64,000 nt of DNA from Candidatus Magasanikiibacteriota bacterium (GTDB taxonomy: Bacteria > Patescibacteriota > Patescibacteriia > Magasanikbacterales > UBA922), in NCBI GenBank assembly GCA_021648085.1, contig JAKITS010000001.1:541671-605670 (forward strand). The letters run 5' to 3'. How positions within the stretch are numbered: position 1 is the first letter of the stretch; each line of letters opens with the position of its first letter. Of this stretch, positions 9,429-47,510 are shown piece after piece. The translations under genes were made by a program, and so were the position numbers. The notes beneath the pieces were generated by a model. The model did no database searches. It was not told where the DNA came from and worked only from the letters and a program-made list of their open reading frames with translations.

Positions 9429-9446
9429 AATATTAAATTTAAAACA

Positions 9447-12914: not shown

Positions 12915-13042
12915 TTGAGAATTCTTTATAATATCTTGTATTTTAATCTTTTATTATTTAAATATCAAGGGTCAATAAAAAACATAAAAAGAACTAATAT
13001 TTTATTATAATTATTTAAATTTTGGTTATATTACATTGGGAT

Positions 13043-13140
13043 ATTTCGACTTCGCTTTGCTCCGCTCAATATGACGTAAAATACTCACGTCATCCTGAGC
13101 GAAATGGAGTAAAGTGGAATGCAGTCGAATGGATCTCAAG
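13043..13140. repeat. Inverted pair of REP-like units (family core CGTCATCCTGAGCGAAG)
   Basis: Left arm ...CGACTTCGCTTTGCTCCGCTCAATATGACGT; right arm ACGTCATCCTGAGCGAAATGGAGTAAAGTGGAATGCAGTCGAATGGATCTC; spacer AAAATACTC. Confidence 0.6.
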
Positions 13141-13253
13141 AAAGTATCATAAAATTATAAATAATAATTAAATTTTTATTCAAATAAACCTTAAACTATT
13201 TTGAATTAAAAAAACACCTTAATTAAAAGGTATTTTTTATTTAAAATTATTTT

Positions 13254-13580
13254 CTACTTTTTCTTTTTTGCTCTACCTTTTTTTGATTTTACAACTTTGC
13301 TAAATTTTTCTGTTATTTTTCCTATTACAAACTTTTCTACAAGTTTTGTTAAAGTTCCACTCACAACCCCCATATTTTTAGATAATCCATCTACCCTATC
13401 TTTTATCATATTTATTGCATCTGTCATCAATTCCACTTTTTCTGTGATACTCTCTATTATTCTATTTGCATTTTTCAAAACTCTAGCAGCTTGGTAAAGC
13501 AACCAGCACAAAAATACTGTAAACCACAAAATACTAAGCGACAAAACAATATATAAAAAATCTTGACTAGATTCAAACAT
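13254..13580 (-). CDS. Small membrane protein (N-terminal TM helix, coiled-coil, basic C-terminal tail)
   Basis: 108 aa. Followed on the minus strand by a hairpin plus T tract at about 13205-13240. Confidence 0.5.
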   Translation of the reverse strand: MFESSQDFLYIVLSLSILWFTVFLCWLLYQAARVLKNANRIIESITEKVELMTDAINMIKDRVDGLSKNMGVVSGTLTKLVEKFVIGKITEKFSKVVKSKKGRAKKKK

Positions 13581-13642
13581 ATTTTTAAAAATTAAGAATT
13601 AAGAATTAAACCTATTATAACACAAATATAAATTAAATATTA

Positions 13643-13672
13643 AAAAAACCAGTATTTCTACTGGTTTTTTTG
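13643..13672. terminator. Terminator hairpin AAAAAAACCAGTATTTCTACTGGTTTTTTT (family copy, opposite orientation)
   Basis: Same palindrome as at 9397, between ORF 13254-13580 and pheT. Confidence 0.6.
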
Positions 13673-13685
13673 TTTTTATATTTTA

Positions 13686-16148
13686 CTAACTTCTCACATC
13701 AGCATCAAAATCTTTTTTTAGAACTTTTACTAATTCTTTGTGAATACTATTTATATCTTCTCTTTTTAATGTTTTTGTATTTGATTGATACACAATGTGA
13801 TATGCCATACTCTTTTTTGTCTTTCCTATTTTATCCCCCTCAAAAACATCAAAAAGTTCAACTGAAGTTATTAAATCATCTACATTTTTCATCTTTTCTA
13901 CCAAATCTTTGTATAAAACACTTTTTTCTACCACCAAAGCAATATCTCGTTCTATTGCCGGATAATCTGAAACAGAGCTGGAAACTTCTTTTTCGCGCAA
14001 AAATGGTAACAGCTTTACCAAATTCAATTCACAAATAGCCACCCTATTTGGAATTCCAAATTTTTGCTGTACAGCTGGGTGAACCTCGCCAATTATTCCA
14101 ACTACATCCCCAAATACTACAACTTTTGCAGATCTGGTTGGGTGTATAAATTCAAACCCTTCTTTTATACCTTCTTGCAATTCATACTCAACCCCCAATT
14201 CTTGCAAACAACTATTTAGAACACTGGAAACATTGTAAAAAGGAGTATCTAAATCTTTTTCAGATAGAGCAAAGCTCAAAAGTAAATCTTGCCTTGGTAA
14301 AAGCGCTCCACTGTTTGGTTGAACTCGCGCGCCAGACTCTTCCAAAATATAAGTTTTCCCAAATTCATACAACGCCAAACTTTTTTCATTGTGAGAGTTT
14401 TTCTCAACATTTTCTAGCAAGTTTGTAAGTAAACTTCTTCGCAAAAACGGTTTATCTTTTGCAAGTGGGTTATCCAATTCTATATGTTTATCTGTTTTCA
14501 ATCCCAACTTTTTCAATGAATTTGGAGCAACAAAAGAATAATTATAAACTTCTGTAAAACCATTTTCCAAAGTCATTTTATCTTGTAAAATTCTTTTTAT
14601 TTTAAATAAACTACTTTGAACAGGTGGAACAATATTAAACATTGGCAATTTTCCTTCTACCGCACCATAACCATAAATTCTCATCACTTCTTCTGCCAAA
14701 TCTTCTTTTATTGAAACATCTTTTGTAGCGCGCCAAGTAGGAATTGTAACGGAAAAATTATTACGCTTTTCTTTTACTTCAAAACCCAAACTATCTAAAA
14801 TTTCCACAACAGACTTCTCCTCAATTTCAAAACCAGCATATTTACTTATAAAATCTTTTTTAAATTCAATTGGACCAACATTTAATTTGAACTTTGAAAT
14901 GTCTGTGACCGAACTTACAACTTTTGATTTTGGACATATTTCTAATATAAGCTGAACAGCTCTGCGCAAGGCAATTTCTGCCAAATTTGGATCCACACTC
15001 TTTTCAAATCTAGAAGATGATTCTGTTCTTACATTTAATTTTGTGCTAGTTTTACGAATTGCACTAGCATTAAAATTTGCAGATTCTAAAACTATATTTT
15101 TTGTATTTTCACTAACAGCACTACTCTGTCCTCCTATCACACCAGCCAAAGCCAAAATATTTTTCTTGTTTGTTATCAATAAATCCCCACTATTTACCTC
15201 TCTTTCTTCTCCATCCAAAAACACAGCTTTTTCACCACCTTTAGCCTGCTTTACATAAATTTCTATTTCACCTTCTTTATTTTTCAGTTTATCTGCATCG
15301 AAAGCGTGCATTGGCTGACCAATATCAAACATTACATAATTTGTAACATCTACCAAAACATTTTTTGGTATCACACCAATTGCGACTAATCTCTTCTTTA
15401 GCCAATCTGGAGATTCAATAGTGGAAACACCGCTTACTGCCACAGCCATATAGCGTGGACACAAATTTATATCCTTTACTTTTATTTTCAAATTCAACTC
15501 ATTTTCTTTTATTTTTGGAATTTCTGGCGGATTATAATCGCTAAGTTGTTTTTTGTACAAAACTGCAACTTCCCGTGCCATTCCATAATGCCCCCACAAA
15601 TCTGGCCTATTTGAAAGTGATTTGTTATCAATGTCCAAAATCACATCTCCAACTTTTAGAGCTTCTGAAATTGGAGTTCCAATTGCAACATTTAGAGAAG
15701 TTACATCCATTATTTCTTTTTCATTTTTGGCAGGAAATAATTCTCCCAAACCAATTTCGTCTGCTGCACAAATCATTCCACTTGAGTCTACTCCACGCAA
15801 TTTTACATCTTTTATCTCTACCAACTCACCTTCACCGTGCCAACGCACTTTTGAGCCAGACTTTGCAACAACAACCTTCAATCCTTTTTTTACATTTGAA
15901 CCTCCACATACAATTTGCAAAACTTCTTCTCCACCAACATTTACCATACAAACTTTCAACTTGTCTGCGTCTGAATGTTTACTACATTTTGTAATTTCAC
16001 CAACCACAATATTATCAAGAATAAATTTTTTATCCTCAACACCTTCAACCTCAACAGTACTCAAAGTCAATTTACTAGCCAAATCTTCTGCACTCACAGA
16101 TTCTAGCAAAAAAACATAATCTTGAAGCCACTCCTTACTTATAAACAT
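13686..16148 (-). CDS. pheT: Phenylalanine--tRNA ligase beta subunit
   Basis: 820 aa; tRNA-binding, B3/B4, B5 and class-II-like domains; directly downstream of pheS. Confidence 0.95.
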   Translation of the reverse strand: MFISKEWLQDYVFLLESVSAEDLASKLTLSTVEVEGVEDKKFILDNIVVGEITKCSKHSDADKLKVCMVNVGGEEVLQIVCGGSNVKKGLKVVVAKSGSKVRWHGEGELVEIKDVKLRGVDSSGMICAADEIGLGELFPAKNEKEIMDVTSLNVAIGTPISEALKVGDVILDIDNKSLSNRPDLWGHYGMAREVAVLYKKQLSDYNPPEIPKIKENELNLKIKVKDINLCPRYMAVAVSGVSTIESPDWLKKRLVAIGVIPKNVLVDVTNYVMFDIGQPMHAFDADKLKNKEGEIEIYVKQAKGGEKAVFLDGEEREVNSGDLLITNKKNILALAGVIGGQSSAVSENTKNIVLESANFNASAIRKTSTKLNVRTESSSRFEKSVDPNLAEIALRRAVQLILEICPKSKVVSSVTDISKFKLNVGPIEFKKDFISKYAGFEIEEKSVVEILDSLGFEVKEKRNNFSVTIPTWRATKDVSIKEDLAEEVMRIYGYGAVEGKLPMFNIVPPVQSSLFKIKRILQDKMTLENGFTEVYNYSFVAPNSLKKLGLKTDKHIELDNPLAKDKPFLRRSLLTNLLENVEKNSHNEKSLALYEFGKTYILEESGARVQPNSGALLPRQDLLLSFALSEKDLDTPFYNVSSVLNSCLQELGVEYELQEGIKEGFEFIHPTRSAKVVVFGDVVGIIGEVHPAVQQKFGIPNRVAICELNLVKLLPFLREKEVSSSVSDYPAIERDIALVVEKSVLYKDLVEKMKNVDDLITSVELFDVFEGDKIGKTKKSMAYHIVYQSNTKTLKREDINSIHKELVKVLKKDFDADVRS

Positions 16149-16149
16149 A

Positions 16150-17181
16150 TTAAAATTGCTTTAAAAATTTCAAATTTCCAGAAGAAAACGCACGGACATC
16201 TTCTATCATATATTTGAGCATTACAAGTCTATAAAGTCCAAAACCAAATGCAAAACCACTGTAAACTTCTGGGTCTATTCCGCCAGCTTTGAGTACATTT
16301 GGATGAACCATTCCAGCCCCAAAAACCTCTAGCCAGCCAGTTTTTTTACAAACCCTACAACCCTCTCCTTTACACAAAAAACAACTCACCTCCCCATTTA
16401 CACCCGGCTCCACAAAAGGATAAAATTTTGGACGAAGCCTAACCTGAGTTTCATCTCCATACAAATGTTTTGCAACAACCTCCAAAGTTCCTTTTAAATT
16501 GCTAAAATTTATGTCTTTACCTACAACCAAACCTTCTAGCTGATAAAAACTGTGTTCGTGTCTTGCGTCTGTTGCCTCGTTTCTAAAACAAATCCCAGGA
16601 GCAATCATACGAAGTGGTGCTCCATATTTTTGCATTGCGCGAACCTGCACAGAAGAAGTTTGTGTTCGCATTACCCAATTTAAATTGTCTTTTATATAAA
16701 AAGTATCCTGCATATCTCTCGCTGGGTGATCTGCTGGAACATTCAATGCTTCAAAATTATAATATTCACTTTCCAATTCTGGACCATCCAAAACCATAAA
16801 ACCCATAGAGATAAAAAGATCTTCCAAACTTTTCTGAACTATAGTATTTGGATTCAAATGACCTTTTCTCTTTTTTCCTAAAAATGGTTGCGTCACATCT
16901 ATTCTTTCTTTTTCTGCGACTTTATCCATTTGTAATTTTTGAAGTTCATCTTTTTTTTCTACAAATATTTCCATCAATTCTTTTTTTGCCAAATTTGCCA
17001 ATTGTCCAAATTCTTTTCTCTCAACCAGTTCCATATCTTTCATCTTTTTCATTAAGTTTGTAAATTCCCCAGCTTTTCTACCAAAAAAATTAATCTCAAA
17101 TTCTTTTAGAGATTCTTTGTCTTTTATAGACTTAATTTTACTTATAAATTTCTCTTTCAAACTTTCTAAAACTTTTTTCAT
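16150..17181 (-). CDS. pheS: Phenylalanine--tRNA ligase alpha subunit
   Basis: 343 aa; class II aaRS motifs (FRNEATDARHEHSFYQLEG, GAGMVHP). Confidence 0.95.
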   Translation of the reverse strand: MKKVLESLKEKFISKIKSIKDKESLKEFEINFFGRKAGEFTNLMKKMKDMELVERKEFGQLANLAKKELMEIFVEKKDELQKLQMDKVAEKERIDVTQPFLGKKRKGHLNPNTIVQKSLEDLFISMGFMVLDGPELESEYYNFEALNVPADHPARDMQDTFYIKDNLNWVMRTQTSSVQVRAMQKYGAPLRMIAPGICFRNEATDARHEHSFYQLEGLVVGKDINFSNLKGTLEVVAKHLYGDETQVRLRPKFYPFVEPGVNGEVSCFLCKGEGCRVCKKTGWLEVFGAGMVHPNVLKAGGIDPEVYSGFAFGFGLYRLVMLKYMIEDVRAFSSGNLKFLKQF

Positions 17182-17205
17182 AATAAAGTAATTTTACGAT
17201 ATTAA

Positions 17206-17236
17206 AAAGCATACCATTTCTGGTATGCTTTTTTCA
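17206..17236. terminator. Hairpin terminator AAAAAGCATACCATTTCTGGTATGCTTTTTT
   Basis: 9-bp perfect stem GCATACCA/TGGTATGC flanked by A and T runs, between ORF 17248-17835 and pheS. Confidence 0.5.
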
Positions 17237-17247
17237 AGTGCTTATTC

Positions 17248-17835
17248 CTATTTTATTACAATACTATCTGCAATTTCCCTAAGCTCATCTCGAGTAGTAG
17301 TATCTCCATCGCTATAAAAAAAACGAACAACATAAGAATCATTTTCGTTGTATCCAATGTGCAACCTATCTTTTGCCAACAACGAATCAGCTTCTTTTTG
17401 TGTAGTTTTTGGACCAAAACCCATTGGATTTTCTTTATAATCTTTAGATTTATAGATTTCTATTTTTGCAACCTTATTACCAGTTCCTGTTATGACAATT
17501 GGTTTCAACACACCACTTGATTTTTTGACAGTATAACCTTCAAAATATTTCAAGTTTAAAGAAAGTGGCAGTGTATCAGTAAAATTTAACAACTTTTTAG
17601 CTATCATAATAGGTTCTATTGGTTTCATACCTCCATTTTCTTCTTCCATCATTTCTGGAATTTTATCATTCATTATTTCATACATTCCTATCATATCACT
17701 CTCCATCTCAGCTCTTTGAGAATTCATAAAGATAGAGAAAGCAAGAAAAAATCCTAGTAATACAACTATTATTATAGATAAAATAAGTATTGGTAGCTCT
17801 AGTCCACCAGACTTTTGTTCAAATTCTTCATTCAT
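17248..17835 (-). CDS. Hypothetical membrane-anchored protein
   Basis: 195 aa; one N-terminal TM helix. Same strand as rseP upstream. Confidence 0.5.
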   Translation of the reverse strand: MNEEFEQKSGGLELPILILSIIIVVLLGFFLAFSIFMNSQRAEMESDMIGMYEIMNDKIPEMMEEENGGMKPIEPIMIAKKLLNFTDTLPLSLNLKYFEGYTVKKSSGVLKPIVITGTGNKVAKIEIYKSKDYKENPMGFGPKTTQKEADSLLAKDRLHIGYNENDSYVVRFFYSDGDTTTRDELREIADSIVIK

Positions 17836-17873
17836 ATTTTTATATTATTTTTATATATAAATTATACCATAAA

Positions 17874-19040
17874 TTAGAAAAAATTTAAAATATCCCTTCC
17901 TGTCACCACAATTATCAAAACCATCAAAAGTGCAAAACCAATTGTGTGTGCGATTTGTTCATATTTCACTGGAACCGGCTTGCGAATTATTTTCTCTATT
18001 CCCAAAAATAATATTCTACCACCATCCAAAGCTGGAATTGGTAAAATATTTATTGCCGCCAAACTAAGCGAAATCATTGCAGTCGCATTTATTAAATAAC
18101 TAATTCCAAGTCTGGCACTTTGACCCAAAACAACCGCAATTCCCACAGGTCCAGAAACTTCAAAAGCCAATCCTTTACCAACAACCAAATTTCCTATTAA
18201 AATACCAAACGCTACAAATATATTTACCAAAGCAATTCCACTAGCTACAAACCCTTTGTAAATTGCAATGTACCATGGGTAACGAACTATTGCAGCATCT
18301 GCCATCATTATTCCAATTTGTTTTTTTCCGTCGTCTTTTAACTCTGGCACTACCTCAAGCGAAACTTCTTGTCCAGATCTATCAACTTTCATATCAATTA
18401 CACCCTCTTCATAAGTTTGTATAGCATCAATCAACTCATTTGAAGAATTGATTTCTATTCCATACAAAGATACAATTTTGTCACCAAACATTAAACCTGC
18501 TTTATCTGCTGGAGAATTTTTTTCTACCATTTGAACTATTACTTGAGGTTGATCGACTATGATAATCTTGTCATCATCTAAGCCAGAAATATCTGCTGGC
18601 AAACCAACTATAAAACCTACAGAAAAAAGTACAGCCGCCAAAAGTATATTCATAACAACTCCAGCTAGTAAAACCACAAATCTTTTCCATATTTTTTGAT
18701 GACCAAAACTATCTGTATCATTTGAATTTTCACCATTTTCACCTTTTATATTGCAAAATCCACCAAGTGGCAAAAGATGTAAAGAATACAAAGTTGAAGG
18801 AAATTCCTGACGCAAATCTGGAATATCATCCACAGGTTTTTTACTTTTTTTTCCTCTTCTCCAAACCCAAACAAATTTTCCAGTTTTTGGATCTTTATAA
18901 ACTCCAAACATTCTAGGCGGATAGCCTATCGCAAATTCATAAACTTTCATCCCAGTAAGTCGAGCAGCTATAAAATGTCCAAATTCGTGAACAAAAACTA
19001 GCAATCCTAAAATCAGAATAAATACAACCAATGTGAACAT
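17874..19040 (-). CDS. rseP: Site-2 zinc metalloprotease (M50 family) with PDZ domain
   Basis: 388 aa; HEFGHF (HExxH) in first TM helix, central PDZ-like segment, C-terminal LDGG motif. Confidence 0.85.
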   Translation of the reverse strand: MFTLVVFILILGLLVFVHEFGHFIAARLTGMKVYEFAIGYPPRMFGVYKDPKTGKFVWVWRRGKKSKKPVDDIPDLRQEFPSTLYSLHLLPLGGFCNIKGENGENSNDTDSFGHQKIWKRFVVLLAGVVMNILLAAVLFSVGFIVGLPADISGLDDDKIIIVDQPQVIVQMVEKNSPADKAGLMFGDKIVSLYGIEINSSNELIDAIQTYEEGVIDMKVDRSGQEVSLEVVPELKDDGKKQIGIMMADAAIVRYPWYIAIYKGFVASGIALVNIFVAFGILIGNLVVGKGLAFEVSGPVGIAVVLGQSARLGISYLINATAMISLSLAAINILPIPALDGGRILFLGIEKIIRKPVPVKYEQIAHTIGFALLMVLIIVVTGRDILNFF

Positions 19041-19139
19041 AAAAAATTAAATTTTATAACTAAATTTATCTTACTAATTATCACATACAAAAGTTTGATT
19101 TGCAAATTGAAAATTTGTGTATTAAAAAACCCGACTATT

Positions 19140-19166
19140 TAAAGCCGGGCTATATTTTTATTAAAT
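19140..19166 (-). terminator. Hairpin (CCCGGC...GTCGGG) plus T tract downstream of ORF 19167-19571
   Basis: Minus-strand sequence AGCCCGGCTTTAAATAGTCGGGTTTTTT. Confidence 0.45.
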
Positions 19167-19571
19167 TTAAAATATATAAGTAAAACCCATCTGTAATGAA
19201 CTCATCCACTGTCGTACAGAATTCAACTCCACACAACACTCTTTTTCTGTATTCTCAACACAGATATCTTTTAATTTATCATCTAATAATCCAATAATTT
19301 CAGAACAAGTCTCAAACAATTCATAATCAATCAAAACTTCCAAAACATCACGAATTTTTTGAATTTCTCTAATAAAGACCACTCTTCCTTGGGTACCTAA
19401 TCTAATACTCATCTCTTCTGTTTGTATTTCACACTCAACATTTTCATGACCATACAAAATTTTTGAAATAGGACACTCTAGAATTTCTTTCAAAAAAGCG
19501 ATGTCTTCTTCTCTTCTGGTAACCATGTAAAACCTCCTTGGTTTTGTAGAGAACTTAGTATCACCCCACAA
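19167..19571 (-). CDS. Hypothetical small protein
   Basis: 134-aa ORF (probable true start at the internal Met, MVTRREED). No family recognised. Confidence 0.45.
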   Translation of the reverse strand: MWGDTKFSTKPRRFYMVTRREEDIAFLKEILECPISKILYGHENVECEIQTEEMSIRLGTQGRVVFIREIQKIRDVLEVLIDYELFETCSEIIGLLDDKLKDICVENTEKECCVELNSVRQWMSSLQMGFTYIF

Positions 19572-19633
19572 TTGCTTTTAGTTAAATTTTATAAATTATG
19601 GGCTAAAATGAGTTGTGGGGTTATACTAAATTG

Positions 19634-19707
<74 letters not shown>

Positions 19708-19782
19708 ATCTAAAGAAACTATTTGGCAATAGTTCCTTAAAACATTAAACCATATTTTAATGATTTTGTCAACGATTAAGAT

Positions 19783-20145
19783 GTTCTAATTGTCCGAAAT
19801 TTCTAACCTCCCGAACATTTGAAATTTCCTGCTTGCGGGACAGGCTAATTAAACTAATTTATTATTACAAATTAACAATTAACAAAAATAATCTTACATC
19901 ATCCTGAGCGATAGTCGAAGGATCTCGAGATAAAATAACTAAAACATAAATAATTATAATAAAACATTAGCTCGTCTTTCTTTTTGTTCTTTGTTAATTG
20001 TTAGTTATTAATTAAACATCCTCTTAGTGACAAAAGATAAAGTGAGAACATTTTGATGTTATCGTTAAAAAAGAATATTTTTAAATCAATGTTTAAAGGA
20101 TTCCTGCTGGCAGGTAGGTCTCGCTTTGGTTCAACATGATAGAGA
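19783..20145 (+). repeat. Structured long intergenic repeat (SLR family), copy 1, carrying a nested REP unit and a long internal hairpin
   Basis: Shares 5-prime module TTCTAACCTCCCGAACATTTGAAATTTCCTGC, central GTGAGAACATTTTGATGTTATCG and 3-prime GCAGG...CTTTGGTTC with copies at 24286, 25015, 33309, 41427. The central ACCTTTTGG/CAAAAGGT hairpin of copy 41427 is replaced by AATTAACAATTAACAAA...TTTGTTAATTGTTAGTT. Confidence 0.7.
19897..19931 (-). repeat. REP-like unit nested inside SLR copy 1
   Basis: ACATCATCCTGAGCGATAGTCGAAGGATCTCGAGAT. Confidence 0.6.
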
Positions 20146-20188
20146 AGCCAATGTTTTAATATAAATTTATATTTTGTGATTTAAATTG

Positions 20189-20282
20189 GGGTATCCATTC
20201 GACTCCACTTCGTTTCGCTCAGGATGACGTGTGGGAAAGTGATACTATCTCGAGATCCTTCGGCTTCGCTCAGGATGACGTA
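20189..20282 (+). repeat. Two tandem REP-like units (long variant with CCAC insert, then short variant)
   Basis: GGGTATCCATTCGACTCCACTTCGTTTCGCTCAGGATGACGTG ... CTCGAGATCCTTCGGCTTCGCTCAGGATGACGT, immediately downstream (minus sense) of the phosphohexomutase gene. Confidence 0.65.
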
Positions 20283-20288
20283 AAAAAA

Positions 20289-21656
20289 TTAAGATAAAAA
20301 TACTTTCAACTCCTCAACCTTATCTTTAACTTCTTCTTTGTTTCTCGCCTCCAAATTCAATCTTAATACCGGCTCTGTGTTTGATTTTCGTAAACTAAGC
20401 CAACCCCAATCAAATCTCATCCACAACCCATCCAAATATGAAGTCTCCAAAGCAGAATCTTTAAAACTCTCTTCTACTTTTTTCATTACACCATCTTTAT
20501 CTTCTACTTCAAAATTTATCTCGTCTGAATGAACATATCTTTTGAATGGTTTTATCAATTCACTAAGTTTTTTACCTTCACGAGACATAATATGTAAAAA
20601 GTAAAGCAAAGATAAATCTGTAGATTCTAAATCATAAACATCACTATAATAAAGATGTAAGGATAACTCACCAGCAAAAACAGCTCCTGTTTTTTTCATT
20701 AGATCCTTAATTAGAGCATGACCTACCATACACATTTGAGTCTTTGCACCATTCTCCTCCCAAATTTCTTTTACAGATTGGCTTAGGCGCAAGTCATAAA
20801 GCATTACAGAATTTGGATGTTTCGCTAAAACTTCCAAACCAACCAAACCACCAACAAAAGATGCTGGTACCACTTCCCCGTTTTCATCCACCAAACCAAT
20901 CCTATCTGCATCACCATCAAAAGCAAAGCCAAAGTCCGCTCCAACTTCTACCACTTTTTTCTGTAAATCTTTTAATGTTTCTACTTTCAAAGGATTAGCC
21001 TCGTGATTTGGAAAAGTTCCATCTGGCTCCATATACATATACTCCACTTCTATTGGCAACTCTGCCAAAACTTTTGGAATAGAAACATCTGCCATCCCAT
21101 TTCCCCCATCCACCACAATTTTAAGTGGCTTAATACTTTCTTTTGGAACAAGTGAAAAAATTAAATTTTTATAATCTTCAAAAATACTTTTATCCTCTAC
21201 CCCTCCTTTTTCTTCCGCATCTTTAAATTCATAATTTAAAACTAAATCTTTTATTTCATCCATTCCAGTCACCTTTCCAACCGGCAAACCATTTTCTTGT
21301 GTAATTTTGAAACCATTGTATTCTGAAGGGTTATGACTTGCTGTCACCATAATTCCACCAACATGCTCCGAATAATGCGCGCATGCAAAGTTAAAAAGTG
21401 GTGTACTCGTTAGGCCAATTTTTACCACATCAATACCTTCGTAATTTATTCCTTTTATCACCGCATTTGCAAACTCTTCGCTTGTCTCACGCATATCTTT
21501 TCCAACCACTATTTTTTTACCAGAAAAATCTATATTTTTATTTTTCAAAAAAACGACAAAAGCTCTCCCAACCCTATACGCAAACTCGGCAGACAAATCA
21601 CCATTTACCAACCCACGAATATCATATGCTTTGAAAATTTTGTTATTGAACCTCAT
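20289..21656 (-). CDS. Phosphohexomutase (phosphoglucomutase/phosphomannomutase/GlmM family)
   Basis: 455 aa; active-site TASHNPSEYNGFK, Mg site DGDADR, sugar-binding GELSLH-like motif. Confidence 0.85.
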   Translation of the reverse strand: MRFNNKIFKAYDIRGLVNGDLSAEFAYRVGRAFVVFLKNKNIDFSGKKIVVGKDMRETSEEFANAVIKGINYEGIDVVKIGLTSTPLFNFACAHYSEHVGGIMVTASHNPSEYNGFKITQENGLPVGKVTGMDEIKDLVLNYEFKDAEEKGGVEDKSIFEDYKNLIFSLVPKESIKPLKIVVDGGNGMADVSIPKVLAELPIEVEYMYMEPDGTFPNHEANPLKVETLKDLQKKVVEVGADFGFAFDGDADRIGLVDENGEVVPASFVGGLVGLEVLAKHPNSVMLYDLRLSQSVKEIWEENGAKTQMCMVGHALIKDLMKKTGAVFAGELSLHLYYSDVYDLESTDLSLLYFLHIMSREGKKLSELIKPFKRYVHSDEINFEVEDKDGVMKKVEESFKDSALETSYLDGLWMRFDWGWLSLRKSNTEPVLRLNLEARNKEEVKDKVEELKVFLS

Positions 21657-21767
21657 ACTTCTAAATTTACTTGAATTATATAGTGAATTTTGTTATATTT
21701 TATATATAAATCTCTTAAAGACTATATTTTTAATATTAAACAATAACATTATTGTATCACACTTACT

Positions 21768-24281: not shown

Positions 24282-24285
24282 AAAA

Positions 24286-24545
24286 TTCTGTCCTTTTCTA
24301 ACTCCCAACCTCCTGAACATTTGAAATTTATGGACTAATTTTTTATAAATATTTATGGTTTTCTGAGAATACAGAAAATAACGAATTTAGCGAACTGCGG
24401 TGAGTTAAATAAATATTTAGAAAAAATTAAGCCATAAATTGTCAACCGTTCGGCACTTTTGGTTACCTTTTGGTGACAAAAGGTAAAGTGAGAAGGATTG
24501 GGTTTTAAATTTAAAGATTTTGTGAGTCGAAGATAAAATTTTTAA
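24286..24545 (+). repeat. SLR family copy A (long form), starts 5 bp after the clpC stop
   Basis: CCTCCTGAACATTTGAAATTTATGGACTAATTTTTTATAAATATTTATGG...GTTCGGCACTTTTGGTTACCTTTTGGTGACAAAAGGTAAAGTGAGAAGG; ends in a degenerate REP remnant GTGAGTCGAAGATAAAAT. Confidence 0.7.
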
Positions 24546-24621
24546 ATTAAACATTAGGATTACATAAAAAAAGTTTTTAATTATTATTTAAAATAATAAT
24601 TAAAAGTACTTCATAATTAGC

Positions 24622-24981: not shown

Positions 24982-25014
24982 ACTCCAGGCTTCCGACTTC
25001 AGTTTTTTATCATA

Positions 25015-25335
25015 TTGTTCTCTTCCTATCCTAAACCTCTCGAACATTTGAAATTTTTGGACTAATTTTTTATAAATATTTATGGTCCTTTTGAGAATAC
25101 AAAAGGATAGTGAGTGTAGCGAATTGCGGCGAGCCAAATAAATATTTATAAGAAATTAAGCCTAAAATTGTCATTAGTTCGGCGGTTTTAACTACCTTTT
25201 GGCAGCAAAAGGTAAGGTGAGAAAAACTTAGTTTTGAATTTAAATAAAAGTTTTACTCATATATCACGCTTAAGAGATTCTCGTCTGCCGGCGCGCAGGT
25301 CTCACTTTAGTTCGAAATGACAGAAAAAATAAATT
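25015..25335 (+). repeat. SLR family copy B (long form); its 3-prime module abuts the start of gene 25347
   Basis: About 85% identical to copy A over the shared 5-prime and central modules. 3-prime module CTGCCGGCGCGCAGGTCTCACTTTAGTTCGAAATGACAGAAA matches copy 41427. Confidence 0.7.
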
Positions 25336-25346
25336 AAACACAAAGT

Positions 25347-26405: not shown

Positions 26406-26471
26406 TAAAATTTAAAAAATAAGACTAAAGAGTGTGTTATAATTTAATTACTACATATCACAAATAAAAAT

Positions 26472-28309: not shown

Positions 28310-28310
28310 T

Positions 28311-30392: not shown

Positions 30393-30412
30393 TATAAAAA
30401 GGATTTTTACAA

Positions 30413-31744: not shown

Positions 31745-31776
31745 GGTAGCAAATTAAGCAGATTAAGTAAAAAACA

Positions 31777-31806
31777 AAAAACAGACCAATTAGTCTGTTT
31801 TTTGTT
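31777..31806. terminator. Bidirectional terminator AAAACAGACCAATTAGTCTGTTTTTT between convergent radA and guaB
   Basis: 5-bp stem CAGAC/GTCTG plus flanking A/T runs. Confidence 0.6.
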
Positions 31807-31841
31807 TAAATAATTAAATAAAAATATTAATTAATACTTTT

Positions 31842-33281
31842 TTATTTCACATCAATCAAATCATGTGCACCACTTTCTCTCAATCCTGCGTTTGTGACTC
31901 TTACAAATTCTGCGTTATTTTGTAGCTCACCCACAGTTCTAGAATTTGTATAGCTCATTCCAGAGCGAAGTCCGCCAACAAGCTGACCAATTATATCTCC
32001 CACAGGACCTTTGAATGGTACGACAGCTTCCACTCCTTCTGGTACCACATCGCCCAATTTTTTACTTTCCTGATTCACTTTTTTTCTTCTTTGTGCCACC
32101 GCAAAACTCGCGCTTCCTCGACAAACTTTGAACTTCTTCCCTGCTCTAGACATTACAACTCCAGGGCTTTCTTTTGTACCTGCCAGCATTCCACCAAGCA
32201 TCACAGTGTCTGCTCCAGCTCCAAGTGCTTTTACTATATCCCCAGATTTTTGGATTCCACCATCTGCAATTACCGGCACACCATATTCTTTGGCAACTCT
32301 GGCGCATTCTGCCACAGCGGTAAACTGCGGAACTCCACAACCAGCCACAAGACGAGTAATACAAATAGTTCCTGGGCCAACACCAACCTTAATTCCATCT
32401 ACTCCTGCTTCACACAATTCTCGTGCACCTTTAGCGCTCGCTGTATTTCCTGCAATTATCTGAACATCACCAAACTGCTCGCGCAATTTACGAACTGCAC
32501 TAAACATCAATTCAGAATGACCATGTGCAATATCTACCACCAAAACATCAACACCCACATTTATCAAAGCACTCGCTCTTTCAAGGTAATCTCCGTGAAC
32601 ACCAATAGAACCACCCACAATCAACCTACCTTTTTTGTCCACATTTGCATAAGGATAATCAATCAAATTTTTTATATCACAACTTGTAATCAACCCAACG
32701 ATAGAATTATTCATATCTACCAACGGCAACTTCTCCACTCTGTGTTGAGCTAGTAATCTTTTTGCTTCATTTAGATTTGTAGATGCATCCCCTACCACAA
32801 GTCTATCTCGAGGTGTCATCACGTCTCGCACAAGCAAACCATCATCTTCTGCAAACAAAATATCGCGCTTGGACAAAACACCCAAAAGTCGTCCATCGCC
32901 ATTTGAGACAAGAAGTCCTGTCACACCATTGTTCGCCATAACCTGTTTTGCAATACTTACTGTCTTATTTGGATCAATAGTATAAGGCTCATAAATTACA
33001 AAATTCTGTGCACGTTTTACCCTTTTTACCTCTTCTGCATTTTCTTCTATCGTCATAAACCTATGTAAAATTCCAATTCCACCAAGCCGTGCCATGCTTA
33101 TAGCCATCTCGGACTCAGTCACAGTATCCATATTTGAACTTATTATCGGTGCACTCAGTGAGATTTGTTTTGTAAGCCAAGTTGAGGTGTCAGCTTCACT
33201 TCTAGATCTCATAGAAGATCTCTGCGGAACAATCAAGACATCATCATAAGTTAATGCGATCGGAATATTGTTTACATCCAT
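31842..33281 (-). CDS. guaB: Inosine-5-prime-monophosphate dehydrogenase
   Basis: 479 aa; TIM barrel with tandem CBS insert; catalytic loop VGVGPGTICITR. Confidence 0.95.
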   Translation of the reverse strand: MDVNNIPIALTYDDVLIVPQRSSMRSRSEADTSTWLTKQISLSAPIISSNMDTVTESEMAISMARLGGIGILHRFMTIEENAEEVKRVKRAQNFVIYEPYTIDPNKTVSIAKQVMANNGVTGLLVSNGDGRLLGVLSKRDILFAEDDGLLVRDVMTPRDRLVVGDASTNLNEAKRLLAQHRVEKLPLVDMNNSIVGLITSCDIKNLIDYPYANVDKKGRLIVGGSIGVHGDYLERASALINVGVDVLVVDIAHGHSELMFSAVRKLREQFGDVQIIAGNTASAKGARELCEAGVDGIKVGVGPGTICITRLVAGCGVPQFTAVAECARVAKEYGVPVIADGGIQKSGDIVKALGAGADTVMLGGMLAGTKESPGVVMSRAGKKFKVCRGSASFAVAQRRKKVNQESKKLGDVVPEGVEAVVPFKGPVGDIIGQLVGGLRSGMSYTNSRTVGELQNNAEFVRVTNAGLRESGAHDLIDVK

Positions 33282-33308
33282 ATGGTTTAATTTAAAATAT
33301 TTTTATTT

Positions 33309-33456
33309 TTTTAACCTCCAGAACATTTGAAATTTCCTGCATGCCAGACAGGAGATTATCATTGGTTCAGCACTTTTAGTTATCTTTTAATGTCAAAAGG
33401 TAAGGTTAGAACATTTTTATGTTATCGTCAAAAAAGAATGTTTAGATGAAATAAAG
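33309..33456 (+). repeat. SLR family copy (short form) fused to a REP unit
   Basis: TTAACCTCCAGAACATTTGAAATTTCCTGCATGCCAGACAGGAG...GGTTCAGCACTTTTAGTTATCTTTTAATGTCAAAAGGTAAGGTTAGAACATTTTTATGTTATCG. Confidence 0.65.
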
Positions 33457-33489
33457 ACGAGATCCTTCGACTTCGCTCAGGATGACGTG
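33457..33489 (+). repeat. REP-like unit (short variant)
   Basis: CGAGATCCTTCGACTTCGCTCAGGATGACGTG followed by AAAATACTCAC, as in the 13043 copy. Confidence 0.65.
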
Positions 33490-33496
33490 AAAATAC

Positions 33497-35566
33497 TCAC
33501 TCCAAATGGACCCCTCTTTCCCATTCTTTTAATTTTTCAACTAATGTTGGATAATTTAAAATTTCTAAATCCTCCACCAAACTTTTAGACAAATTTATAA
33601 TTCTTGTATCAGTCAAAGAAGCAAATTTAAAATCTAGCTGACCGCTTTGAATTTTACCATAAACTTGTCCAGGTCCACGAGTTTGCAAATCGAACTCTGC
33701 AATCATCAAACCGTCTCTATTTTTTTCAAAAAAATCCAACCTCTCCCAAGATTTCTCAGATTTACTATTTGTAAATACAAAACAATAAGATTGATGGGAA
33801 CTTCGCCCAACTCTACCACGAAATTGATGAAGCTGTGCAAGCCCAAACCTGTCTGCATCTTCTATCATCATAACGCTCGCATTTGGGATATCCACACCCA
33901 CTTCTACCACAGATGTAGAGACCAAAATATCCAAATCTCCGCTCGAAAACTTTTTCATTACCTTGTCTTTTTCACCGGCTTTTAGTTTACCATGAAGGTA
34001 TCCAATTTTTAAATCAGGGAAAACTTTTTTTGACAACCTTTCATATTCATTTAGTACAGATTTTTTCTCATCTCCTTCGCCATCTTTGTTTTCTATCAAC
34101 GGACAAATCACAAAAACTTGCCTTCCGCCCACCACTTGCGCGCGAATAAAATCATAAGCTTTATGCCTGTTTTGTTCGCTCACTACTCTAGATTTCACCG
34201 GTTTTCTACCACTTGGCATTTGCGTAATTGTAGAAATATCCAAATCCCCACAAAGCACCAAAGCCAAAGACCTGGGAATTGGTGTTGCAGACATGGTTAG
34301 AAAATGTGGCATTCTATCTTTCAATCCAGATTTTTCCTTCAAAGTTTTTCTCTGCTCTACTCCAAATCTATGTTGTTCATCTATTATTATCAACCCAAGT
34401 TTTTTGAATTCCACCTTATCCCCCAAAAGTGTATGGGTTCCAATTATAATATCCGCCTCACCATTTTTTATAAGTTTTATCATTTTTGCTTTGGAAAAAA
34501 CGGCTTCGCCCTCACTATTTTTCAAAATTCTATTTGTTCTCGTAAACAAAGCAATATTCACATCTCCCAAAAATTTCTGAAAAGAATTGAAATGCTGTTT
34601 TGCCAAAATTTCTGTTGGTGCCAAAATAGCGGTCTGGTGTTTGTTCAAAATTGTATTATAACCAGCAATTGCCGCAACCACGGTTTTTCCACTTCCTACA
34701 TCTCCCTGAAGCATTCTGTTCATTGGAGAGTCTTTTTGCAAATCTTTCAAAATCTCCCAAGAAACCACTCGTTGATCCTCAGTCAGTTCAAACGGTAATG
34801 ACTTTACAAACTTTTTCATCTTTTCTTCTTTAAATAAAATCTTTGGCGCTTGAAAACTTTTATTTTGATCACGAATAAATTTTGCACGAAGTTGCAGTAA
34901 AAATAATTCATCGAATTTTAACCTTTCTCTTGCACTTGTCAAATTTTCATTATTTTCTGGAAAATGAATACCTTTTACAGCTTCGCTTGTGGAAAATAAA
35001 TTTAACTTATCAAAAATTTCCTGCGGTAACCACTCTTCAATTTTCTCTGCCAATTTTATAACCTGCCCCACAAAATAACGGATCTGCTTTTGAGTCAATC
35101 CAAAAGTAGAAGGATAAATTGGAATTATTCTAGCAGTATGTTTTGTCTGCTCCTCACTCGCCTTTTCATAAATAGGCCCAGCAAACAAAATTCCAAGTCT
35201 ATCCAAACTTGGAGTTCCAGAAAAATAAACTTCATCACCTACATTTAAAGTTTTTGCGATAAAAGGCTGACCAAACCACAAAATCCTCATTCGCCCACTA
35301 TCGTCCGAAATCAAAGCCTCGGTCAAAAAAGTGTGCTTCCTTTTACTCCTCTTATTTTTTATCAATTCTATTTTTGCTTTTACCGTCACTGCCTCCCCTA
35401 CTTTTGCATCTTTTATTTCTACGATTTTACTATAATCCTCATAACGAAATGGAAAATGGCGCAACAAATCACGGACATTTTTTATGCCCAATTTATCAAA
35501 TCTTTTCCTCAACTTATCCCCAATTTTATTCAAAGATTGTATTGGTGTTTCTAAAGTTATATTCAC
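33497..35566 (-). CDS. recG: ATP-dependent DNA helicase RecG
   Basis: 689 aa; wedge domain, helicase motifs GDVGSGKT and DEQHRFG. Confidence 0.95.
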   Translation of the reverse strand: MNITLETPIQSLNKIGDKLRKRFDKLGIKNVRDLLRHFPFRYEDYSKIVEIKDAKVGEAVTVKAKIELIKNKRSKRKHTFLTEALISDDSGRMRILWFGQPFIAKTLNVGDEVYFSGTPSLDRLGILFAGPIYEKASEEQTKHTARIIPIYPSTFGLTQKQIRYFVGQVIKLAEKIEEWLPQEIFDKLNLFSTSEAVKGIHFPENNENLTSARERLKFDELFLLQLRAKFIRDQNKSFQAPKILFKEEKMKKFVKSLPFELTEDQRVVSWEILKDLQKDSPMNRMLQGDVGSGKTVVAAIAGYNTILNKHQTAILAPTEILAKQHFNSFQKFLGDVNIALFTRTNRILKNSEGEAVFSKAKMIKLIKNGEADIIIGTHTLLGDKVEFKKLGLIIIDEQHRFGVEQRKTLKEKSGLKDRMPHFLTMSATPIPRSLALVLCGDLDISTITQMPSGRKPVKSRVVSEQNRHKAYDFIRAQVVGGRQVFVICPLIENKDGEGDEKKSVLNEYERLSKKVFPDLKIGYLHGKLKAGEKDKVMKKFSSGDLDILVSTSVVEVGVDIPNASVMMIEDADRFGLAQLHQFRGRVGRSSHQSYCFVFTNSKSEKSWERLDFFEKNRDGLMIAEFDLQTRGPGQVYGKIQSGQLDFKFASLTDTRIINLSKSLVEDLEILNYPTLVEKLKEWERGVHLE

Positions 35567-35766
35567 AAGATTTATTGTTAAATAATTTTTTGATGAAAAT
35601 TTTTATATTTCGAGCGAAACGAAGATAAAAATTATGAGGTATTGCCATAGCACTATTGAATAATTTTTATCAAGTTATAGCCGAAATATAGAAATTTTGG
35701 CGAAAAATTATCCAACAATAGATCTGTCGCTTATATATTTTAACATCTGCAAAAAATTTTACAAAT

Positions 35767-35794
35767 AAAAAAACCAGTATTTCTACTGGTTTTA
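35767..35794. terminator. Terminator hairpin AAAAAAACCAGTATTTCTACTGGTTTT (family copy)
   Basis: Identical palindrome to 13643 and 37458 copies; just downstream of ORF 35792-36139. Confidence 0.6.
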
Positions 35795-36139
35795 AACCTT
35801 GTTAGACAAAGATTTAAAAAATATTTTACTATTTTTAATAACATAAATAAAAGATTTAAAAAATATCTTTTTAGTAAAAGAGTTATTCAAAAAATAAATA
35901 TCAACAAACAAAACAGACATACAAAAAACAAAAAAGAAAGAAGCTGGAATATAAGTATTAATTACATTAGATATATAATAAAATCTTGAATTAAGTAAAC
36001 ATAACTCATAAAAATAAGTATTAACATTAAAAATAGGTAATAATAAATAAACTAAAGATAACACTCCAAACAAAATCCCACTTTTAACTACCATTTTTCT
36101 ATGTAATCTTTCACTAATTAATAAAAAAGATTTTTCCAC
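35792..36139 (-). CDS. Small polytopic membrane protein (GTG start)
   Basis: 115 aa; 3-4 TM helices; GGAGG Shine-Dalgarno 7 nt upstream of GTG. Confidence 0.5.
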   Translation of the reverse strand: MEKSFLLISERLHRKMVVKSGILFGVLSLVYLLLPIFNVNTYFYELCLLNSRFYYISNVINTYIPASFFFVFCMSVLFVDIYFLNNSFTKKIFFKSFIYVIKNSKIFFKSLSNKV

Positions 36140-36250
36140 TCTTACCTCCTTTTTGTAATTTTATAAATTGTAAAGAACTTTAAATAAATCTACCATTTTA
36201 TTCCAATTTTGTCAACAAAAAAAACCAGTATTCTTACTAATTTATTTATT
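36140..36250 (-). promoter_or_regulatory. Duplicated ~100-bp promoter/leader module (copy 1), about 80% identical to 37381-37490, including TTGACA, TACAAT-like box, AAAGGAGG RBS, GTG start and an upstream family terminator hairpin
   Basis: Minus-strand ...TTGACAAAATTGGAATAAAATGGTAGATTTATTTAAAGTTCTTTACAATTTATAAAATTACAAAAAGGAGGTAAGAGTG matches the 37381-37490 copy. Confidence 0.5.
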
Positions 36251-36252
36251 AT

Positions 36253-37380
36253 TTAAACACTAAACTCTTCTAATTCAACATCAACCAATTCTTCTAAAAC
36301 AGAGCCTAATTCATCCAACCCTAATCCTTCAGAAAAATCAGAAACAGTTAATGCCAGTTTAATATCAACTTGTCTTACAATATCTTCACTTTCTTGGCGT
36401 ATCTTTTCTAATTCACCTGCTATTTCTCCTGACATTTTTTCCAATATTTTATCAACTTCATCACTAATTTCTTGAATATCTCCAACCAACTTTCGTACAT
36501 CTTCCATAATTTTCAAATCTGGCAAAGTAGTTTGCTGAAAAACCTCTAAAGATACTCTTGTTTTACTAATATACTCTTCTTTGTCAATTTTAAAACCTCT
36601 TAAAATAACCTGCTCTCTTAAAAGATGTTCATTATATTTATTAACCGCATAAATAGCCAAATTTATATGTTTAGGAATCTTTCTGTTTAAGCGTTGGTAT
36701 TCATTTTTCCGCACCGAAAGAACTTCATTCAAACGAACAACCTCACTTAAATTAAACTCAATTCTTTTATATTGTTTTTGATAGTCGCTATCATTACCAA
36801 ACAAATCACTCTCTAACTCATTAAGTCTTTTTTTATTATGCTCAATAGCAAAATCATAATAATTTTTATCAAACTCATCTTTAAATTTATTTGGATTAAA
36901 TGATACCGCACAAAAAACTCCATTTGGTTTAAATTCTTTATATTCAAAATTATTTTCACATGACACATGTACAAACTTTTGTATATTTTCTTTGTTATAA
37001 AAGTTTAACAAAATAAAAAAAATAAAAACCAACAAAACAAAAGATAAGACAAAAGATAAAATACTTTGAAAAATTACAAGAAAAATAGGTAGATAAAAAC
37101 AAAAAAAAGGAATTATAGATAAAATCAATATCTTATTTCTAATATCATTTTTGTTTAAAATTAAAAACATATTATTTTTTTTAGATTGTTTTTCTATTTT
37201 TTTTAATATTTCCAATCTTTGATTTTCTTGTCTTACTATTTTTAATTCATAAGAAGCTTTTTCTTCTTTTACTTGATCTTCATATTTCTTTTTTGCCTTT
37301 TCAAACTCTTCATCATAAATATTACGGCGTATAGATACAAAATCTAACCACAATCTTTTTTTTAATGTATCGATTTTCAC
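36253..37380 (-). CDS. Hypothetical membrane protein with central TM hairpin and coiled-coil flanks (GTG start)
   Basis: 375 aa; hydrophobic ILILSIIPFFCFYLPIFLVIFQSILSFVLSFVLLVFIFFILLNF. Confidence 0.55.
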   Translation of the reverse strand: MKIDTLKKRLWLDFVSIRRNIYDEEFEKAKKKYEDQVKEEKASYELKIVRQENQRLEILKKIEKQSKKNNMFLILNKNDIRNKILILSIIPFFCFYLPIFLVIFQSILSFVLSFVLLVFIFFILLNFYNKENIQKFVHVSCENNFEYKEFKPNGVFCAVSFNPNKFKDEFDKNYYDFAIEHNKKRLNELESDLFGNDSDYQKQYKRIEFNLSEVVRLNEVLSVRKNEYQRLNRKIPKHINLAIYAVNKYNEHLLREQVILRGFKIDKEEYISKTRVSLEVFQQTTLPDLKIMEDVRKLVGDIQEISDEVDKILEKMSGEIAGELEKIRQESEDIVRQVDIKLALTVSDFSEGLGLDELGSVLEELVDVELEEFSV

Positions 37381-37490
37381 TGTGCACCTCCTTTTTGCAG
37401 TTTCATAAATTGTAAAGAACTTTAAATAAACTTATCATTTTTTCTAGATTTTGTCAACAAAAAAACCAGTATTTCTACTAGTTTTTTGTC
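37381..37490 (-). promoter_or_regulatory. Duplicated promoter/leader module (copy 2) with family terminator hairpin AAAAAAACCAGTATTTCTACTAGTTTTTT at 37458-37487
   Basis: See copy 1; drives ORF 36253-37380. Confidence 0.5.
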
Positions 37491-37541
37491 TCTTACTCAA
37501 TCTGCCTAATCTGCTTATTTCTTATATTTTCTATTCTATTG

Positions 37542-37613
37542 TGCTCTCGGCAGGAATCGAACCTACATCCCCAGTTCCGCAAACTAGTGTCCTATCCGTT
37601 GAACGACGAGAGC
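37542..37613 (-). tRNA. tRNA-Arg (anticodon GCG; anticodon parse less certain than the tRNA call)
   Basis: GCTCTCG-TC-GTTC-AACGGATA-GGAC-A-CTAGT-TTGCGGA-ACTGG-GGAT-GTAGG-TTCGATT-CCTGC-CGAGAGC-A; U33, G37, 4-nt variable loop. Confidence 0.7.
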
Positions 37614-37880
37614 AAATTATATCTGGAACAGTCCAATTATACCTCAAAACCATGACAAAGTCAACCATAAGAACCTATTCAACATCTTTTTCCTATTTAA
37701 TCTCACTCTATTTTGACTACAAATTTTATAAACAAGTTCGGTATAAAAATATTATTCCTTACTTTTTTATAAAATTTTCGCTCAAAATATAATAAAACTG
37801 ACTTAGAAAAAAGATATTAAATATGTTCTAGAAACAAAAAATACAAGTTTCCTTGTGTTTTTTGTTTAGTGTTTTTAAAA

Positions 37881-37922
37881 CGAGATCCGTTCGACTCCAC
37901 TTCGTTTTGCTCAGGATGACGT
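37881..37922 (+). repeat. REP-like unit (long variant)
   Basis: CGAGATCCGTTCGACTCCACTTCGTTTTGCTCAGGATGACGTG. Confidence 0.65.
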
Positions 37923-37974
37923 GAATATTTTTTCTTTTTTAGTTTAAACTACTTACTCTTCCTATTTTACTGTT

Positions 37975-47485: not shown

Positions 47486-47510
47486 ATTCAAAATACTAGA
47501 TTTTACAAAA

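Follow-up and report, generated by a model that had tools for sequence, protein, structure and literature searches.

Solo and paired CGTC-tagged hairpin repeats in a Magasanikbacteria genome are probably a divergent subtype of the Ssn-related repeat class

A 64-kb stretch of a Candidatus Magasanikbacteria genome (Patescibacteria/candidate phyla radiation, CPR), called the window here, contains seven short hairpin repeats, designated units U1 to U7, that are found singly or as a pair and carry an unpaired CGTC tag. These units very probably belong to the class of Ssn-related motifs (SRM) and NTS repeats, whose known partner is the nuclease Ssn. They are a divergent subtype of this class, also described as CGTC-tagged repetitive extragenic palindromes (REPs), and not a REP family specific to one genome. 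The assignment draws on the class features of the units, on covariation in their stems, and on the association of the subtype with a nuclease gene in other genomes. An earlier note on this DNA had listed seven REP-like units, and their number and positions hold: the 15-nucleotide core GTCATCCTGAGCGAA, with up to three mismatches allowed, occurs at seven sites in the window, compared with 0.74 expected, and none of 100 shuffled sequences reached seven. In the order U1 to U7, the core sites are 13061-75(-), 13089-103(+), 19898-912(+), 20214-28(-), 20265-79(-), 33472-86(-), and 37906-20(-).

Two published descriptions define the class. Di Nocera, De Gregorio and Rocco (BMC Genomics 2013) split REP-like repeats into GTAG-tagged and CGTC-tagged super-families (PMC3733652). 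The CGTC REPs, which include dRS3 of Neisseria and RPE-4/6 of Rickettsia, have a CGTC (or TGTC) tag that stays unpaired and a stem beginning with A and T; they form head-to-head dimers with conserved spacers, occupy sites downstream of open reading frames (ORFs), and sometimes lie within longer palindromes (PMC3733652). Chenal et al. (Nat Commun 2025) reported that NTS (CGTCATTCCCGCGMAVGCGGGAATCYRG) and SRMs flank the gene of SsnA, a single-domain GIY-YIG protein of 94 amino acids, and that the NTS-ssnA-NTS layout resembles an insertion sequence; they note that functions beyond Neisseria are not known (PMC11893778). SsnA binds the NTS hairpin only as single-stranded DNA (ssDNA) and cuts just upstream of it, and it does not use the reverse strand, double-stranded DNA, or RNA as substrates (PMC11893778). 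The three nucleotides before the palindrome are most vital for cutting, whereas the C after the palindrome is most vital for binding (PMC11893778). The literature was also searched by the literal unit sequence, which returned nothing relevant, and the subtype sequence was not found in the text or supplements of PMC3733652.

The canonical unit reads CGTC-ATCCT-GA-GC-GAA-GC-GA-AGGAT-C. Its predicted fold has five Watson-Crick pairs followed by two tandem G.A mismatches and two G-C pairs, closed by a GNA triloop in which the middle base is free. When copies were chosen by their core only, with no pairing requirement, the outer stems were complementary in 152 of 163. Double changes restore pairing in 31 of the 42 non-canonical stems (TTCT/AGAA in 13, TGCT/AGCA in 6, TTCC/GGAA in 5, TTTC/GAAA in 3, and others), and the inner G-C pair is swapped to A-T (GAACG..TGA) and to C-G (GACCGAAGTGG). 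A curated seed of 43 units has double changes at five of seven pairs, with a covariation of 0.47 versus 0.19 for shuffled alignments and 0.01-0.14 for slid partners. Both the GTC of the tag and the C after the stem are invariant in this seed; within the window, CGTC is retained by six of the seven units (U3 has CATC) and the C after the stem likewise by six (U4 has A). A covariance model, R1, whose seed units come solely from other genomes, recovers U6, U5, U3, U1, and U7 in the window at E values from 5e-11 to 7e-4. Rfam holds no family that reaches its gathering score in the window or at 18 unit loci, and the only matches at E<=10 around U1/U2 are noise.

The same unit is found in many phyla. 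A scan of one genome per species for the pattern CGTCATCCTGAGCGAA-N(3-30)-GGATCTCG identified at least 120 stretches that carry it, from Acidobacteria, Planctomycetes, Chloroflexota, Omnitrophica, Verrucomicrobia, Binatota, Armatimonadota, several Proteobacteria, Bacteroidota, Nitrospinales, and a Dialister. Nearly all of these share the middle GCGAAGG, which the pattern left unspecified, giving GTCATCCTGAGCGAAGCGAAGGATC within a unit of ~29 nucleotides, CGTC-AT-CCT-GA-GC-GNA-GC-GA-AGG-AT-CTCG; by our own estimate, ~0.1 such stretches would be expected by chance (24 fixed bases, 596 Gb). Partial matches also lie on plasmids of cultured Hymenobacter, Planktothrix, Gloeothece, and Granulicella, so the motif is not an artefact of metagenome bins. 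The earlier note had reasoned that restriction of the units to one 25-kb region, with no HUH-transposase partner anywhere in the genome, would weaken a mobile-element interpretation; the motif proves to be the opposite of confined.

Outside the window, copies are arranged as singletons, inverted pairs, and short tandem arrays, and 102 of 143 are intergenic by crude gene calls. In co-directional contexts across phyla, sense copies outnumber antisense copies by 31 to 12, a bias that would fit recognition of the strand that becomes single-stranded in replication or transcription. No conserved target tetranucleotide was found beside the units. Tandem arrays are formed in some genomes, for instance in locus L112 (4178-4290), where the period is 43 nucleotides and the array lies beside an RNase P RNA gene, and in locus L023 (2935-3300). 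Truncated heads (GTCATCCTGAGC...) also commonly lie stacked immediately upstream of a complete unit.

The genes near the motif single out one recurrent nuclease. When ORFs located at most 3.5 kb from the motif were clustered all-against-all in 120 of these loci, the recurrent clusters were generic enzyme families and a single cluster of proteins of ~95 amino acids, which have a GIY-YIG domain (Pfam E 2e-17). The gene is present in four of the loci (L036, L086, L100, and L115), where units or inverted unit pairs stand on either side of it, and as a fragment in L050. Among 132 small proteins encoded beside motif copies, GIY-YIG is the sole recurring nuclease family.

The association also appears when the loci are selected by the protein. 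In 80 metagenome loci picked by the GIY-YIG protein alone, the density of unit heads (pattern GTCA[TC]N2-4GA[GAC]C[GAC]) is 4.08 per kb at up to 250 bp from the gene versus 0.19 per kb at more than 600 bp, a 21-fold difference. Heads are found in 64 of the 80 loci and on both sides of the gene in 31. Those upstream are mostly on the strand of the gene (+), ~55-65 nucleotides away, and those downstream are mostly inverted (-), at ~45-57 nucleotides. A generic finder of "GTC + hairpin + C" scores 72 of the 80 loci as positive, with 6.2 versus 0.65 matches per kb. Units that flank ssn share a GAGCG-N-AG-CGA core with many different stems, and they include the T-bulge form seen in the window (L195, L132) and the long insert ACGAAGTGGAGT (L174). 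The same protein family is flanked elsewhere by canonical NTS (L191) or by other CGTC types, and the proteins beside window-type units are 41-61% identical to those beside canonical NTS units.

An insertion-sequence-like arrangement occurs in Parvimonas micra and human metagenomes (L132, L207-L211). In these sequences, a cassette of ~700 bp consists of a unit, ssn, an inverted long unit, ~180 nucleotides, and another long unit. The cassette is 100% identical although its neighbor varies between contigs (mnmE, a yaaA-like gene, or a gene for a 355-amino-acid protein), and the identity stops exactly at the 3' end of a unit. Many contigs also break there. The cassette looks like a multi-copy element resembling an insertion sequence.

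The earlier note had suggested that the units may be REP-like parts of a mobile system that involves a REP-associated tyrosine transposase (RAYT), an IS200/IS605 element, or TnpB. The units are indeed REP-like intergenic hairpin repeats, of a type associated with a system that resembles a mobile element, and they are tied to a longer repeat family in the window (SLR, below), but the proposed partners find no support. On this explanation, the units would be REPs or REPINs moved by the tyrosine-HUH enzyme RAYT, or else ends or miniature derivatives of IS200/IS605-TnpB elements. Such elements are short intergenic hairpins with an unpaired 5' tag, as here, and the head-to-head pair in the window, with singletons like half dimers, would suit them, as would the excess of sense copies, which is expected of elements processed on ssDNA. 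However, the tag is CGTC and not GTAG or GTGG, and CGTC repeats are reported to flank no tyrosine transposase gene, with no transposase reported for them at all (PMC3733652). Only GIY-YIG recurs in the scans of neighboring genes in other genomes. A Y1 transposase is absent from the 25 families listed, out of 118 that were matched by 132 neighboring proteins, although a single occurrence is possible. Between 13 and 38 kb of the window, no transposase or nuclease gene was found, RAYT and TnpB included. Mobilization by RAYT or IS200/IS605 enzymes is thus very improbable.

Several points weigh against the Ssn-based explanation of the units. The published SRM string, HGTCWYN(0-2)YYVSBRHN(0-5)WNVSBRGN(0-2)RNCYNB, was derived from 29 genomes as a search aid and not as a functional definition, and it has no matches in the window: it recognizes neither the canonical unit nor U5, U6, or U7, whereas it does match an NTS control. 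Neither as RNA nor as DNA is the unit more stable than shuffled sequences are (z from -0.4 to +1.5), compared with a z of -3.5 for the Neisseria NTS, so covariation is the sole basis of the fold. The 43-unit seed was thinned by hand and some mismatched copies were dropped, such that its 99.7% pairing is biased and the 152 of 163 given above is the fair count. The Ssn label of the neighboring proteins derives from the Pfam GIY-YIG domain and not from CDD family cd10448. Finally, no ssn gene or pseudogene is present in the 64-kb window, where the best matches have E values of 0.02-0.7. The best 120 matches of two protein searches for Ssn included none on the source contig of the window, which is uninformative as to its presence there.

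The missing gene could mean that the units are orphan relics, the neutral remains of a past invasion whose partner nuclease is gone from this small CPR genome. Three units (U1, U3, and U4) are decayed, and units are absent downstream of the phosphoglucomutase gene in two relatives. One of these, whose phosphoglucomutase is 65% identical, has the same gene order; in the other, a closer relative with 86% identity, the region fails to align with the window. On the other hand, U5 and U6 are nearly perfect. Moreover, an Ssn homologue is present in 81% of the genomes that hold more than 200 SRMs, a figure that has no counterpart for low-copy genomes (PMC11893778). A different subtype at the DUF948-dnaE spacer of the first of these relatives also suggests continued turnover. 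The relic explanation is therefore possible but, in our judgment, rather doubtful.

That spacer belongs to the Magasanikbacteria genome with the 65% identical phosphoglucomutase (GCA_014729395.1, locus L201), and contains an inverted pair of canonical NTS-type repeats, TGTCATTCCCGCGAAGGCGGGAATCCAG, at 20316-20347(+) and 20372-20403(-). The DUF948 protein of this genome is 67% identical to that of the window. In the window, the orthologous spacer holds U1 and U2, which are unlike the L201 pair in subtype and arrangement. Because the units differ at the sites of related genomes, copies appear to turn over between such genomes.

A role of REPs at the RNA level, in the 3' untranslated regions (UTRs) of mRNAs, has been proposed in general. 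Perhaps the units act mainly as RNA, as 3'-UTR hairpins that end transcription or shield mRNAs from 3' exonucleases. U5, U6, and U7 are in sense orientation, 8 to ~50 nucleotides past stop codons, and across phyla the sense copies are both commoner and nearer to stop codons than antisense copies (median of 72 versus 122 nucleotides). Di Nocera et al. argued that many such repeats are transcribed (PMC3733652). However, the predicted RNA structures are weak (-3 to -8 kcal/mol, with the z scores given above), and those 3' flanks of the units that were read lack a T-run like that of the AAAAAAACCAGT...ACTGGTTTTTTT hairpins, the longest being four Ts after U7. These hairpins score as terminators at 13641-13672, within the scanned region of 12900-13700, and recur at four further sites. 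U2 and U3 are antisense, and 15 of the 102 intergenic copies elsewhere lie between divergent genes. An RNA function would also leave unexplained the identity of the sequence across phyla and the bracketing of a nuclease gene, and Ssn binds no RNA (PMC11893778). We consider it improbable that RNA is the main level of action, and possible effects on neighboring transcripts would be secondary.

Each unit consists of the unpaired CGTC tag, the A-T and T-A pairs that start the stem, the conserved purine-rich core, and the C directly after the stem. By analogy with SsnA, the top strand would fold once the DNA is single-stranded (after PMC11893778). A single-domain GIY-YIG Ssn of ~94 amino acids would then bind the fold and cut a few bases upstream (after PMC11893778). 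The nuclease gene itself is typically bracketed by inverted units, in the manner of an insertion sequence (PMC11893778). From these comparisons, we infer present or past action of an Ssn on the copies in this Magasanikbacteria genome, and their spread through a single-strand process that depends on Ssn. The decay of U1, U3, and U4 suggests that the population of copies is old and largely inactive.

A bolder and more tentative proposal is that units with a GAGCG-NAG-CGA core form a distinct, cross-phylum lineage of Ssn repeats, and that the unit-ssn-unit cassette is a true insertion sequence. The idea of cassette transposition arises because of the identical cassette in Parvimonas micra and because two Magasanikbacteria have different subtypes in the DUF948-dnaE spacer. 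We regard it as a conjecture that is less likely to be right than wrong.

The units of the window are all intergenic and lie among housekeeping genes in a stretch of 32% G+C that carries dnaE, pheST, and recG, a site-2 protease, phosphoglucomutase (100% identical to MCF6276759.1, which is encoded on a 984,181-bp contig of a Candidatus Magasanikbacteria genome bin), a ClpB-like ATPase, radA, and IMP dehydrogenase. Short and long variants had been distinguished previously, and both are real: the short form is ~32 nucleotides, with CACGTCATCCTGAGCGAAG(C/T)CGAAGGATCTCG in U5 and U6 and a variant of it in U3, and the long form is ~43-50 nucleotides, with 11-21 added bases in U4, U7, U2, and U1. The added bases are located at the apex of the hairpin.

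U1 and U2 form a head-to-head pair. The left half, U1 (13036..13079, -), is a degenerate long variant, TTAC-GTCATATTGAGCGG...GTCGAAATATC-CCAA, identified by model R1 (E 3.3e-4), by a core with three mismatches, and by the generic GTC-hairpin-C finder. The right half, U2 (13088..13137, +), is a long variant that consists of CGTCATCCTGAGCGAA, an apical insert of ~21 nucleotides, and GTCGAATGGATCTC; it has an exact 15-nucleotide core and matches U4 and U7 as an inverted repeat, and model R1 misses it because of the long insert. Between the heads is a spacer of 13 nucleotides (13076..13088, +), GTAAAATACTCAC, which was recognized by reading the sequence and by pattern search and contains a motif that recurs beside the heads of U6 and U7. 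This motif, AAAATACTCAC, occurs without mismatch at 13078-88 and 33490-500 and with a single one at 37921-31. It had been described as a tail shared by three units, and it does recur at three (one of them with the mismatch), but it precedes the units, on their head (5') side. Because the head spacer of U1/U2 recurs at U6 and U7, these singletons look like halves of head-to-head pairs.

The remaining units are solo. U3 (19894..19928, +; model R1 E 1e-5) is a short unit in which CATC replaces the CGTC tag. By palindrome search and SLR alignment, it lies in the loop of a 37-nucleotide imperfect palindrome (19855-19891 / 19978-20014) in SLR copy 1. U4 (20188..20232, -) is a long variant with the apical insert ACGAAGTGGAGT and a decayed tail, GGATACCCC; its 15-nucleotide core is exact, and model R1 gives only E 0.36. 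U5 (20250..20283, -; model R1 E 1.2e-10) is a short unit close to the canonical form, with a bulge of one base, GAAGCCGAAGG, and begins 8 nucleotides past the phosphoglucomutase stop codon in sense orientation. U6 (33457..33490, -; model R1 E 4.9e-11) is likewise a near-canonical short unit, GAAGTCGAAGG, and begins ~9 nucleotides past the stop codon of recG (identified by Pfam), also in sense orientation, where it replaces the end module of an SLR copy. U7 (37880..37924, -) is a long variant, GAGCAAAACGAAGTGGAGTCGAACGGATCTCG, found by model R1 (E 7.2e-4) and by a core with one mismatch; it is ~50 nucleotides downstream of ORF 37975-38478, in sense orientation.

Two degenerate traces that had been proposed in addition, at 24520-24545 and 62318-62335, have no match to model R1 at E<=10. 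The model does give weak matches at 60403-60428(+) and 47495-47525(-) (E 0.03 and 0.16, respectively), which are AT-rich GTCAT...ATC hairpins, one within ORF 59705-60451 and one between convergent genes. These may be chance matches or very decayed units. An identity of the units as strong palindromes or terminators was considered and rejected, because neither their RNA folds nor their DNA folds are better than those of shuffled sequences.

The SLR family has copies at 19800-20142, 24289-24520, 25016-25326, 33308-33456, and 41445-41648, in both orientations relative to neighboring genes, and has no Rfam match. Each copy comprises a constant 5' part (AACCTCCNGAACATTTGAAATTT), a variable middle of 30 to ~165 nucleotides that is often a long AT-rich palindrome, and, at the 3' end, a unit-like hairpin module of the TGTC/ATC type in reverse orientation. 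In the 41445 copy, this module (41598..41643, -) is a tentative TGTC-tagged, unit-like hairpin, GTCATTTCGAACCAAAGTGGGGCTTACCTGCCGGCAGGCGGGAATC, detected by the generic GTC-hairpin-C finder and the SLR alignment; it has no match to model R1. Similar end modules are present at ~20098-20142 and ~25276-25323. Two observations of the earlier note are upheld by the SLR alignment: one unit (U3) is inside SLR copy 1, in a copy-specific segment of ~165 nucleotides, and another (U6) is at the end of the copy that starts near 33309, where it fills the position of the end module. Because a unit-like module closes the SLR copies, with U6 in its place at the 33308 copy, there is a physical link between the two families, as in mosaic REP clusters. 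The idea that SLR is a decayed ssn gene was rejected because there is no similarity at the protein level.

Other repeats were observed in the window. A third family (9399-9440, 13642-13683, 35755-35793, 36218-36259, and 37447-37485) consists of a near-perfect hairpin, AAAAAAACCAGTATTTCTACTGGTTTTTTT, with A- and T-runs on both sides. Over 12900-13700, the region scanned, it scores as terminator-like on both strands, and it is probably the bidirectional intrinsic terminator of this genome. A duplicate of 80 nucleotides with 86% identity (36144-36223 / 37386-37465) is situated upstream of two minus-strand ORFs, and contains TTGACA and AGGAGGT on the minus strand, which suggests a repeated promoter and ribosome-binding module. 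An inverted repeat of 109 nucleotides that is 78% complementary (7907-8015 / 37703-37811) adjoins tRNA-Glu and tRNA-Arg and may represent a shared tRNA promoter or flanking region.

Placement of the units in the Ssn-related class assigns a previously unexplained CPR repeat to a class whose partner is biochemically defined. A very common subtype escapes the published SRM string; examples of it are found in Acidobacteria, Planctomycetes, Chloroflexota, Omnitrophica, Firmicutes, and CPR, so Ssn-associated repeats have probably been under-counted. The conserved purine-rich core with its tandem G.A pairs predicts a new recognition specificity of Ssn, and site-specific ssDNA nucleases are of practical interest as ssDNA tools. 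If the unit-ssn-unit cassette is indeed a true insertion sequence, a GIY-YIG protein of ~95 amino acids would be the smallest known ssDNA transposase-like enzyme and the long-sought agent that spreads CGTC-type REPs. The Parvimonas micra cassette provides a route to ask whether Ssn cassettes transpose, which has been a question since CGTC REPs were reported without a transposase.

Four known systems are the closest to the units. The ends of IS200/IS605 elements and PATEs are also subterminal ssDNA hairpins recognized by a small nuclease or transposase, but those systems differ in that no TnpA or TnpB accompanies the units, which are solo hairpins of 30-50 nucleotides rather than two distinct ends. 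The REP/REPIN-RAYT system (Nunvar 2010; Bertels and Rainey 2011) shares short tagged hairpins, inverted doublets, a bracketed single-copy partner gene, and likely processing as ssDNA; there, however, the tag is GTAG or GTGG and the enzyme a Y1 HUH transposase, whereas the tag here is CGTC. In addition, REP/REPIN-RAYT families are lineage-specific and mostly vertical in inheritance, whereas the window-type unit is nearly identical across phyla.

The CGTC REPs (PMC3733652) are a further such system. In common with them, the window units have a CGTC/TGTC tag, AT at stem positions 1-2, ~9 positions in the stem, a head-to-head dimer whose halves are separated by a conserved spacer, sites downstream of ORFs and in some cases within longer palindromes, and no transposase. 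They depart from the full CGTC REP description, in which the stem is 8-9 bp, the loop 4-5 nucleotides, and the 3-nucleotide tail mostly CCA, since two of nine stem positions are G.A, the loop is a 3-nucleotide GNA or a large insert, and the tail is CTC(G). From the SRM/NTS-Ssn system, the subtype differs in its GA-GC-GNA-GC-GA core, with tandem G.A pairs and a triloop where NTS has a perfect CCCGC/GCGGG stem, in a CTCG tail versus CYRG, in its weak fold energy, and in a CPR host with no ssn in the window. In common with this system, the window units have the CGTC tag, a stem that starts and ends with AT, and a C directly after the stem, and they are directional and intergenic, and in other genomes inverted copies stand on both sides of a gene for a single-domain GIY-YIG protein of ~95 amino acids.

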